This document shows, piece by piece, positions 45,001 through 48,003 of a DNA stretch of 48,003 bases. This stretch comes from a plasmid. Every line of letters starts with the position of its first letter. Positions within the stretch are counted from its first letter, which is position 1. The position numbers are program-made. The DNA lies in the sequence record NZ_CP115619.1; one strand, given 5' to 3'.

Positions 45001-48000
45001 ATAAACTACAGATAAACTACAAAAAACGTTTTGCCTTAGTGTTGTAAGACTACAAATAGACTACAATAAAACTACAAATAAACTACAAAAAAACGTGACA
45101 GACTACAAATAGACTACAATAAAACTACAGATAAACTACAAAACTCGATTGACCCCTTCTTACGAGTGTTGTAGAGTCATTTTCATACAACGGAGGGGGT
45201 TATGAATAAACCAGCAGATCTGAAACCCCGCAACTTATCGGCTGCTGTCAGATTGCGCCTAAATGAAATCGAGAACTGGCTGGACAGAGGGCTAACGCGG
45301 CATGAAATTGCTGAAATCCTCGACAGCGAATACAGCTTTTCGGTAACAGCCAAAGGGCTTGAGATGGCACTGTATAGAACGCGGCAAAACCGAAAAAATG
45401 TATTGCACAATACGCATGATAAGAGTAGCGCGAAGGGTGCAGCGGAAAGTGTATTGCACAATACACAACCGTCTGAGCCTGAAGTGCAGGAAAGTAAAAA
45501 AGCAGAGAGTCCCGGCATTATTGATAAAGAATTCTTCAAGAAAATCGGTGAGAATTTCGACCCTAAGAAGTTCAACAAAAAATTCTGAGGTGATTTATGA
45601 AAGTAGCGGTAATTAATTACAGTGGCAGTGTTCGTAAAACCTTAATTTCATCTTACCTGTTAGCCCCGCGCGGCTTTGTTGAATAAATCAGATTTCGGGT
45701 AAGTCTCCCCCGTAGCGGGTTGTGTTTTCAGGCAATACGCACGCTTTCAGGCATACCTGCTTTCGTCATTTTGTTCAGCGCTCGTACCAGGGCCATAGCC
45801 TCTGCAACCTGACCATCGTAGTCACGCAGTGTCAGTGAACCTCCGAACAGCTGTTTTACCCGGTACATCGCCGTTTCCGCTATCGAGCGACGGTTGTAAT
45901 CTGTTGTCCATTTCCACCGCGCATTACTCCCGGTCAGCCGCTGATTCGCAACAGCACGGTTACGGTCTGCATATTCACCGGGCCAGTAACCCGCGCCTTT
46001 TCGGGGCGGGATAAGCGCGCTGATTTTCTTACGCCGCAGTTCATCGTGACAGAGTTGGGTGTCGTAAGCGCCGTCTGCCGATGCTGCCCTGATTTTTCTG
46101 TGAGTCTGCCGGATAAGACCCGGGAAGGCTTCTGAGTCCGTCACATTGTTCAGCGACAGGTTTGCACAGATGATTTCATGTGTGTTGCTGTCAACTGCCA
46201 GATGCAACTTTCGCCATATACGACGGCGTTCCTGGCCATGCTTTTTGACTTTCCATTCGCCTTCACCAAAGACCTTCAGCCCGGTGGAATCAATCACCAG
46301 ATGCGCGATTTCACCCCGGGTGAACGTTTTGAAACTGACATTAACCGACTTTGCGCGCTTGCTGACACTGGTGTAATCCGGGCAGCGCAACGGAACATTC
46401 ATCAGTGTAAAAATGGAATCAATAAAACCCTGTGCAGCCCGCAGGGTCAACCTGAACACGCGTTTAATGACCAGAACGGTGGTGATGGCGAGATCAGAAT
46501 AGCGCTGAGGTCTTCCCCGTGATGAAGGCGTTGCCGACTCATACCAGGCCTGAATAGCTTCATCATCCAGCCAGAAAGTTATGGAGCCACGGTTGATGAG
46601 GGCTTTATTGTAGGTGGGCCAGTTGGTTATTTTGAACTTTTGCTTTGCCACGGAATGGTCTGCGTTGTCGGGAAGATGCGTGATCTGATCCTTCAACTCA
46701 GCAAAAGTTCGATTTATTCAACAAAGCCGTCTGTGTTGTAAAATGGCGCCGAAAGCCCGGCGTAGCCGGTTGCCGGGCTATAAATTCTGCCACCCTACCC
46801 CCTGCCCTGATTAGCCTTAACTCGCGAACAGCAATGAAGAAGTCAAAGTAATCCCTTTTAACCCCGGTGAGCGGGCTTTACGGCGTTTACGACGTAAAGG
46901 GCGTGATTTCCGGGGCCTAAGCGGCGGCAGCTTGCTGCTGACGCTTAGGGGGATGTTCATCAACTATTTCAGCGACACCAGGGAACTTAACACGGTAGCT
47001 GCAAAGCCCTAATCCCGCTCACCGCCACGCAGCTGCCGTACGTCCCCCACGGGGGTGCGCAGTGCTGCGCGCGGGAACGGCGGCCCGTCTGCGGGACGCG
47101 GCGCCGTACTGCGCGTTAGCGGCCGCACGCGGCCGGTTACGGGGGACACTCCGCCATACGACCAGCGACCCGCTGAGCTGCACAATCCACAGATAACACA
47201 AGCTACATACATGTCGATATGGGAATCGGCCCACCTTGCCGGGCGCCGGTGCCGTGTGGAAATCCGCCCACCTTGCCGCGCGCCGGTGCCGTGTGGGAAT
47301 CCGCCCACCTTGCCGCGCGCCGGTGCCGTGTGGGAATCCGCCCACCTTGCCGGGCGCCGGTGCTGTGTGGAAATCCGCCCACCTTGCCGCGCGCCGGTGC
47401 CGTGTGGGAATCCGCCCACCTTGCCGCGCGCCGGTGCCGTGTGGGAATCCGCCCACCTTGCCGGGCGCCGGTGCTGTGTGGAAATCCGCCCACCTTACCG
47501 GGCGCCGGTGCCGTGTGGGAATCCGCCCACCTTACCGGGCGCCGGTGCCGTGTGGGAATCCGCCCACCTTACCGGGCGCCGGTGCTGTGTGGAAATCCGC
47601 CCACCTTGCCGCGCGCCGGTGCCGTGTGGGAATCCGCCCACCTTGCCGCGCGCCGGTGCCGTGTGGGAATCCGCCCACCTTGCCGGGCGCCGGTGCTGTG
47701 TGGAAATCCGCCCACCTTGCCGCGCGCCGGTGCCGTGTGGGAATCCGCCCACCTTGCCGCGCGCCGGTGCCGTGTGGGAATCCGCCCACCTTGCCGGGCG
47801 CCGGTGCTGTGTGGAAATCCGCCCACCTTACCGGGCGCCGGTGCTGTGTGGAAATCCGCCCATCTTGCCGGGCGCCGGTGCCGTGTGGGAATCCGCCCAC
47901 CTTGCCGGGCGCCGGTGCTGTGTGGAAATCCGCCCACCTTACCGGGCGCCGGTGCTGTGTGGAAATCCGCCCATCTTGCCGGGCGCCGGTGCCGTGTGGG

Positions 48001-48003
48001 AAT

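Follow-up and report, generated by a model that had tools for sequence, protein, structure and literature searches.

An IncN1 replicon relic in an IncR multiresistance plasmid

The subject of this work is an array of 37-bp iterons of the incompatibility group N (IncN) type, also referred to as 'group I' or 'iteron I', which is located across the two ends of a 48,003-nucleotide (nt) stretch of plasmid DNA (sequence record NZ_CP115619.1; this whole stretch is referred to below as the window). The array and the truncated repA gene beside it are in all likelihood a passively carried relic of the IncN1 basic replicon, known as 'region N', which resides inside an IncR multiresistance plasmid. The IncN replicon has been reduced to the downstream array of 37-bp RepA-binding units, the CUP-type repeat that flanks it and the 3' end of repA (the final 100 codons). 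The first 139 codons of this gene would have been lost in an IS1-associated rearrangement, along with its promoter, the AT-rich region and the five upstream iterons of 22 bp. Replication of the plasmid would then proceed from the IncR repB gene and its 36-bp iterons, and the IncN array, which has no initiator in cis and would not be needed, may be regarded as dispensable cargo. The module itself is already known from published work and is widespread in IncR plasmids. What is new here is only the genealogy of the array alleles at the level of individual units and a survey of IncN arrays, ranging from 4 to 41 units, with or without an intact repA.

Extent, circularity and periodicity of the array

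Analysis of the window with Tandem Repeats Finder (TRF) identified a 37-bp array of 21.2 copies with 94% matches on the plus strand at 47220..48003, which comprises units 1–21 and the first 7 nt of unit 22. The window ends within this last unit (…TGGGAAT) and base 1 resumes the same unit in phase. The remaining 30 nt of the unit occupy 1..30, and the array closes with a partial unit of 18 nt (31..48), so that it extends over 1..48. Read as a circle, it consists of 22 full 37-bp units and the 18-nt partial unit (22.5 units), in agreement with a first-pass annotation of this DNA, which had described about 22 iterons running in phase over the window ends. The same annotation had taken the window to be probably a circle, and this was confirmed by a 1221-bp query across the junction 48003->1 (the last 824 bases joined to the first 398), which covers the array and the repA remnant and matched at least 60 plasmid records, a lower bound, without a break and with 100% identity. 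Because the junction query was unbroken in these records, the iteron segments at both ends of the window form one continuous array in natural plasmids, and a complete circular plasmid is the best reading of the window.

Typing of the array unit by unit distinguished nine types, which differ only at unit positions 4, 9, 15, 19, 23 and 34 and are arranged in the order A, (B-C-D)x2, E-F-G, (B-C-D)x2, H-I-D, H-I-G, exactly as previously proposed. The higher-order periodicity of 111 bp (three units) that had been claimed from this order was borne out by lag identity and permutation. The self-identity of the array was 97.3, 95.8 and 96.9% at lags of 3, 6 and 9 units, respectively, compared with 92.4–94.6% at the other lags, and pairs of identical units were restricted to lags that are multiples of three (viz. 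9/19 at lag 3, 4/16 at lag 6 and 6/13 at lag 9). The lag-3 value was reached by none of 20000 permutations of the unit order, and by 2 of 20000 after correction for the choice of lag. This 3-unit periodicity is statistically solid and is not due to chance. Helical phasing was considered as a basis for the 111-bp spacing and rejected, as at 10.5 bp per turn 37 bp correspond to about 3.5 turns and 111 bp to about 10.6 turns, which is not an integral number; the differing block sizes of other alleles (4 and 8–11 units) further rule it out.

The consensus unit of the array is identical to that of R46, plasmid 12 and pMTY14759_IncN, and the variants G4A, C15T, G19A and C34T, as well as the whole units D, E, F and I, are also present in arrays located beside an intact repA. 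Judged by their sequences the units show no decay, and because their variants are only those also seen in functional arrays, they should still be bound by IncN RepA supplied in trans.

The repA remnant and the flanks of the array

The minus strand at 96..398 translates without interruption into 100 residues followed by a stop codon, and these residues align to positions 140–239 of the 239-amino acid (aa) IncN RepA. A Pfam search of the remnant (codons 140–239 and the stop) identified a complete Rep3_C domain (WH2; 6e-10), whereas Rep3_N (WH1) is represented by its final ~25 positions alone. The list of open reading frames (ORFs) contains no start codon that opens an ORF of at least 50 aa in the remnant frame, and RefSeq labels the same remnant in other records as 'incomplete; missing N-terminus'. 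At position 398|399 the sequence switches from repA to an end of the insertion sequence IS1, whereas a plasmid with an intact repA, which is identical over 48..398, runs on with gene sequence at this point. The first-pass annotation was correct in that IS1 truncates repA and in the start of the remnant at 96, but the remnant ends at 398 rather than 396, and the loss amounts to 58% of the gene rather than to its 5' two-thirds. The element responsible (IS1X3-type; minus strand, 399..1166) carries insA/insB on the minus strand, as indicated by its sequence and ORFs and by annotation in relatives. No 9-bp target duplication was found at its flanks, which read GAACTGGTT and CGGCAGGCG. Because these 9-bp flanks differ, the IS1/repA junction is ascribed to an IS1-associated deletion or recombination and not to a simple insertion.

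Of the characteristics of a functional IncN1 replicon, the window retains the 37-bp repeats directly downstream of repA, but it lacks an intact 239-aa RepA comprising both WH1 and WH2, and also the five 22-bp iterons and the AT-rich/DnaA-box region that are present upstream of repA in intact replicons. A pattern search for the 22-bp iterons allowing three mismatches gave matches in the window only inside the 37-bp array. The sole other Rep_3 gene is the IncR repB, whose product shares 57% identity with IncN RepA; the earlier description of the array as an orphan without a cognate initiator in cis is upheld. The array is separated from the stop codon of repA by a spacer at 49..95, which upon reading its sequence was seen to hold a short palindrome, TGACAAAAATTTGTCA. 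The first bases of this spacer are conserved in the IncN arrays that were parsed, and every locus parsed has an end motif that begins 3 nt before the end of the partial unit and continues into the spacer.

On its left side the array is flanked, at 46999..47219 on the plus strand, by a copy of a dispersed IncN CUP-type repeat, which was identified by BLAST searches against R46 and by alignment. This G+C-rich repeat of ~200 bp (46999..47201) has four copies in R46 (23442..23658, 24783..24985, 25993..26202 and 32750..32983), one of which adjoins R46's own iterons in the same position as in the window; the alignment of the copies has a mean column identity of 88%. CUP elements are ArdK-binding sites (PMC6289460). 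A DnaA-box-like sequence, ATCCACAGATAA, is located at the array-proximal end of the repeat, where the flank itself ends, and a simple scan of the left flank for promoters and terminators found neither. The left bound of the IncN remnant is formed by IS903B (IS5 family; minus strand, 45672..46728, ends approximate), which was recognized by its transposase ORF (45728..46696), by annotation in relatives and by its repeated end, 38 bp of which recur in other loci.

The IncR replicon

The replicon from which this plasmid would replicate is located on the minus strand at 7514..8846 and consists of repB (7980..8846) and a downstream array of 36-bp iterons (10.4 copies at 7514..7889), as identified by TRF and ORF analysis; its relatives are typed IncR in PLSDB. 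The first-pass annotation had recognized repB as an intact second Rep_3 gene, and both Rep3_N and Rep3_C were indeed found by Pfam, but the 37-bp length that it gave for the repB iterons is incorrect, since the TRF unit is 36 bp, as has also been reported (PMC9412624). Other backbone ORFs of the window match parA, parB, umuC, umuD and resD, and the combination characteristic of IncR replicons, viz. repB and 36-bp iterons beside parAB, umuCD, retA and resD, is present. Short 22-bp repeats were also noted at the start of repB (8831..8889). The layout of the IncR replicon parallels that of IncN, with 22-bp repeats followed by the rep gene and then a downstream 36/37-bp array. Because of this similar layout, the 57% identity of the Rep proteins and the match at 13 of the first 18 nt of the iterons, the two replicons are clear homologues.

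Distribution of region N

The order stbA, IS903B, array, truncated repA, IS1X3, group II intron ltrA (retA) and umuD was observed in the window and in every record examined, IncR-typed carriers of this order including pCAV1453-46 and pEFER. In the IncR plasmid pST1023, 'region N' was described as consisting of IS903B, the IncN repA remnant, 37-bp iterons and IS1X3, and 74 sequences were reported to carry a highly similar region N linked to the IncR backbone (PMC9412624); a follow-up paper mentions the region again (PMC11047700). The window contains all of its components, from IS903B and the CUP flank through the array, the 3' remnant of repA and IS1X3 to retA/ltrA and umuDC, and both the order and the 398|399 junction are shared with plasmids including pCAV1453-46, pEFER and AR_0152.

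The exact truncated-repA/IS1 junction was detected in 157 of 5426 complete E. coli genomes, five chromosomal places included. On the chromosome of E. coli D4 it is located at NZ_CP010143.1 4742164..4742564, and in each of the strains 2017-19-1CC and 15.03CC it is present on two different plasmids. Because the junction occurs on chromosomes and on two plasmids of one strain, region N moves between replicons. The region was also found in plasmids typed IncX1, IncX1/X3, IncFIB/FII and IncY. Some of the records carrying the module are typed IncN,IncN,IncR by PLSDB, and the module explains the 'IncN' replicon typing of plasmids without a working IncN replicon.

Array lengths and genealogy of the alleles

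The length of the array had been regarded as special, but the arrays located beside an intact IncN repA were found to span 6.5 to 41 units. They comprise 6.5 units in both R46 and plasmid 12, 9.5 in pKOX205_3, 17.5 in pEC00617_2, 20.5 in pYQ13422-IMP-4, 22 in both p31B18009_D_KPC and pC21-F1, 28 in an IncN-R fusion plasmid, 32.5 in pMTY14759_IncN, 38.5 in pM159-1.2 and 41 in pF3321-1, where the counts are based upon TRF and a looser segmentation and some of the intact arrays include 38-nt units. Several of these plasmids are single-replicon conjugative IncN plasmids. For the 'iteron I (IncN)' of IncN1-F33 plasmids, 28–31 repeats have been tabulated (PMC6052338). Arrays of the IS1-truncated lineage comprise ~4, 7, 8, 10, 15, 17, 22, 23, 23.5, 25 and 27 units. 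When reference plasmids with an intact repA were examined for an array like that of the window, the number of units was found to recur but their order was not; a query combining the window allele with an intact repA gave 96.6% identity in its best full-length match.

Multi-unit blocks are also present in functional arrays, where they comprise 8 units in pMTY14759_IncN, 9–11 in pF3321-1, ~10 (368 bp) in pM159-1.2 and 4 in pMR0716_PSE. Because the block sizes of functional arrays are different, the 111-bp period reflects the history of the region-N lineage and not a property of the IncN array as such. This history is informed by a 27-unit allele from pPS10-3-tetX, with the order A BCD BCD HID HI F FG BCD BCD HID HIG, in which a segment of 11 units is present twice. 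Joining its unit 8 (H) to its unit 13 (F), anywhere within positions 4–33, yields unit E and the exact window allele. The latter is thus equal to the 27-unit allele minus units 8–12 (5 units, 185 bp), E being an H/F chimera, and no single duplication turns the 22-unit allele into the 27-unit one. Similarly, a 25-unit allele is equal to the 27-unit allele minus two units by one B x D exchange, with a chimeric unit K. The array therefore has the features of a higher-order array evolving by unequal exchange, viz. the lag-3 periodicity and block-related alleles with chimeric junction units.

The latest event that can be inferred for the window allele is best explained, from a comparison of these sequences, as a contraction of 5 units (185 bp) by one unequal exchange. 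Because E is the H/F chimera of this loss, 'E-F-G' is a deletion junction and not a variant trimer. The first-pass annotation had seen in the array a recent expansion by unequal exchange of 111-bp blocks; the 3-unit structure and unequal exchange between alleles are both supported by our results, but expansion as the latest event is not, and older 3-unit duplications (BCD-BCD, HID-HIG) are a fair reading of the earlier structure. The array behaves as a minisatellite, in which blocks are duplicated or deleted when near-identical units recombine unequally or slip during replication, and in the alleles compared here such events can be seen directly. They account for the 3-unit pattern, the doubled 11-unit segment and the 5-unit deletion, and the same dynamics operate in functional IncN replicons. 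Because the alleles are linked by identifiable single exchanges, lineages of IncR/region-N plasmids can be distinguished on a fine scale by the order of the units in the array.

Several points weigh against this account of a passively carried and freely changing array. The direction from 27 to 22 units rests on parsimony and on two sampled alleles. The 22-unit allele is also very common, and the same span is present in 10 IncN-R plasmid records of K. pneumoniae isolates from one patient (PMC8565517). The array is stable on short time scales; a constant number of 22 units could reflect either clonal spread or constraint, and some selected role for the array is conceivable. In addition, tandem repeats are error-prone in assemblies, and errors are possible in some of the public unit counts, a few public alleles differing by one unit or by 1-nt indels that were suspected by the authors themselves (PMC6052338, footnote). 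That the length and unit order of the present array are an assembly artefact is, however, practically inconceivable, as at least 60 independent records, which originate from different laboratories and represent several species, contain the identical 22.5-unit sequence with both of its flanks.

Possible roles of the orphan array

The possibility to be weighed most seriously against passive carriage is that the orphan array constitutes a significant iteron bank, which titrates or handcuffs the RepA of an incoming IncN plasmid, causes incompatibility without replication and is perhaps retained for this reason. Its units are intact and indistinguishable from functional units, and the downstream arrays of P1 (incA) and F (incC) are known to cause incompatibility when cloned. 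By analogy with these arrays, a RepA-bound array could act as an initiator sink or pair with the iterons of an origin, and an incompatibility effect upon IncN plasmids is plausible. The 37-bp repeats of pCU1 are RepA-binding sites according to Papp and Iyer (1995), as cited in PMC9412624, and each partner plasmid with an intact IncN repA that was examined has a second replicon (IncN+IncR fusions, and IncN+IncX1 in pM159-1.2). However, a conjugative IncN+IncR fusion plasmid holds the 22.5-unit orphan array together with an intact RepA (98% identical) that has its own 28-unit array, and this plasmid was present in all 15 K. pneumoniae isolates obtained from one patient over about two months (PMC8565517). 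The formation of such a fusion needed IncN and IncR parents within one cell. Likewise, in E. coli M159-1 an IncY-typed plasmid harbours region N (23.5 units), and an intact RepA with 38.5 units is located on a separate IncN+IncX1 plasmid. Coexistence with an intact IncN replicon is clearly possible, both in cis and in trans, although every IncN partner examined has a backup replicon. Since functional IncN plasmids tolerate 6.5 to 41 units, 22 extra sites fall within the range that RepA control handles, and the span of 4 to 27 units in arrays of the orphan lineage runs counter to selection for a large bank. The overlap of the junction and repA among the listed E. coli matches was close to that expected under independence, in a comparison of low power. 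In view of these observations, an array that is kept as an anti-IncN bank appears unlikely. If such a sink did operate, it would have consequences for the combinations of resistance plasmids that are possible in Klebsiella and E. coli.

Other roles appear less probable. The array could in principle be a dosage-tunable initiator sink, whose number of units sets the depression or displacement of IncN plasmids or, by weak cross-binding of RepB, the copy number of its own plasmid; this is decidedly unlikely, but if true it would explain both the wide spread of the module and the second replicon in every coexisting IncN partner examined. A latent, helper-dependent origin, in which the array and its CUP/DnaA-box-like flank fire when a co-resident IncN plasmid provides RepA, is very unlikely. 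The DnaA-box-like sequence directly left of the array is in accordance with this idea, and pCU1 has been reported to have several origins, according to the title of Zoueva (2003), cited in PMC7826253. In intact replicons, however, the origin-like region (the five 22-bp iterons, an AT-rich stretch and a DnaA box) is located upstream of repA and is absent from the window, and the array region is G+C-rich without an AT-rich unwinding element. Deletion work in pCU1 reportedly found the 37-bp repeats to be dispensable for replication. Cross-talk within the plasmid, where the IncR RepB would recognize the IncN units and the array would modulate the copy number of the IncR plasmid, is conceivable in view of the homology of the two replicons: the 57% identity of RepA and RepB applies to the complete proteins, in which WH2 is well conserved, both replicons place a 36/37-bp array downstream of rep, and the 13 identical positions are within the 18-nt sequences TGGGAATCCGCCCACCTT and TGGGAAACAGGTCAACTT, as counted from the consensus units. 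Set against this are the five mismatches in this 18-nt core, the distinctness of IncN and IncR as incompatibility groups and the stability of IncN/IncR fusions (PMC8565517, PMC11535437). The length of the array is moreover unconstrained (4–27 units) in carriers of the module, several of which are typed IncR, and IncX1-, IncY- and IncF-typed plasmids also carry region N, as does a chromosome. We consider such cross-talk to be highly improbable. For an IncN1 relic that is passively carried, the direct importance is small, as it is a known hitch-hiking fragment of a very common resistance plasmid family.

Neighbouring elements

A number of other features were noted around region N and in the remainder of the window. 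A fragment at 44653..45670 resembles the IncN oriT-stbA region (80–89% identical to R46 19991..21007) and includes stbA at 45202..45588 and 11-bp tandem repeats at 44992..45142. It is flanked by a truncated IS903-type transposase ORF (44351..44620) and by the complete IS903B. Taken together with the typing of relatives as 'mobilizable' in PLSDB, where no relaxase is listed for them, the fragment suggests a putative oriT of the IncN type that could be used by an IncN helper. On the other side of the relic, ltrA/retA (minus strand, 1263..2750) has three differences in 1488 nt from the pCAV1453-46 copy, and compared with that gene it contains a nonsense change, Q122*, at 2385..2387 (G>A at 2387 on the plus strand); this plasmid probably lacks an active group II intron maturase. 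The resistance region contains three full copies of IS26 within 4.6 kb (18252..19071, 20111..20931 and 21971..22796) and a partial IS26 match of 298 bp (26606..26903). In relatives mph(A)/mrx and chrA are annotated there, and the region has a typical IS26-built mosaic structure.

Comparison with known replicons and remnants

The closest known counterpart of the present module is region N of pST1023, with which it shares its components and its position immediately upstream of the IncR retA/ltrA. The two differ only in the allele of the array, which comprises 22.5 units in the window and 24.3 in pST1023, and the report on pST1023 gives no analysis of unit order, higher-order periodicity or allele relations (PMC9412624).

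With the IncN1 basic replicon, as known from R46/pKM101 and pCU1, the window shares the 37-bp unit, the location of the array downstream of repA, the 18-nt partial unit, the spacer and the CUP-type repeat on the far side. Unlike that replicon, it is devoid of RepA residues 1–139, the promoter, the 22-bp iterons and the AT-rich region. It also differs in the number of units, which is 22.5 in the window compared with 6.5 in R46 and 13 in pCU1, although other intact replicons have up to 41.

Truncated IncN remnants are also carried by IncHI2 and F33 plasmids, in which they consist of a truncated repA, iteron I, gshB and a truncated IS1294 (PMC6288184, PMC6052338). These are similar to region N in that an IS-truncated IncN repA and 37-bp repeats are carried as cargo under another replicon type, but they differ from it in that the cut was made by IS26 near the 5' end of repA, only five repeats are present and the flanks are different. 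In a broader comparison, the downstream arrays of P1 (incA) and F (incC) bind the initiator, lie apart from the upstream origin iterons and are dispensable for initiation, and they serve as an initiator sink and as a handcuffing partner. In comparison with these arrays, the families are unrelated in sequence and the array described here is detached from its replicon altogether.

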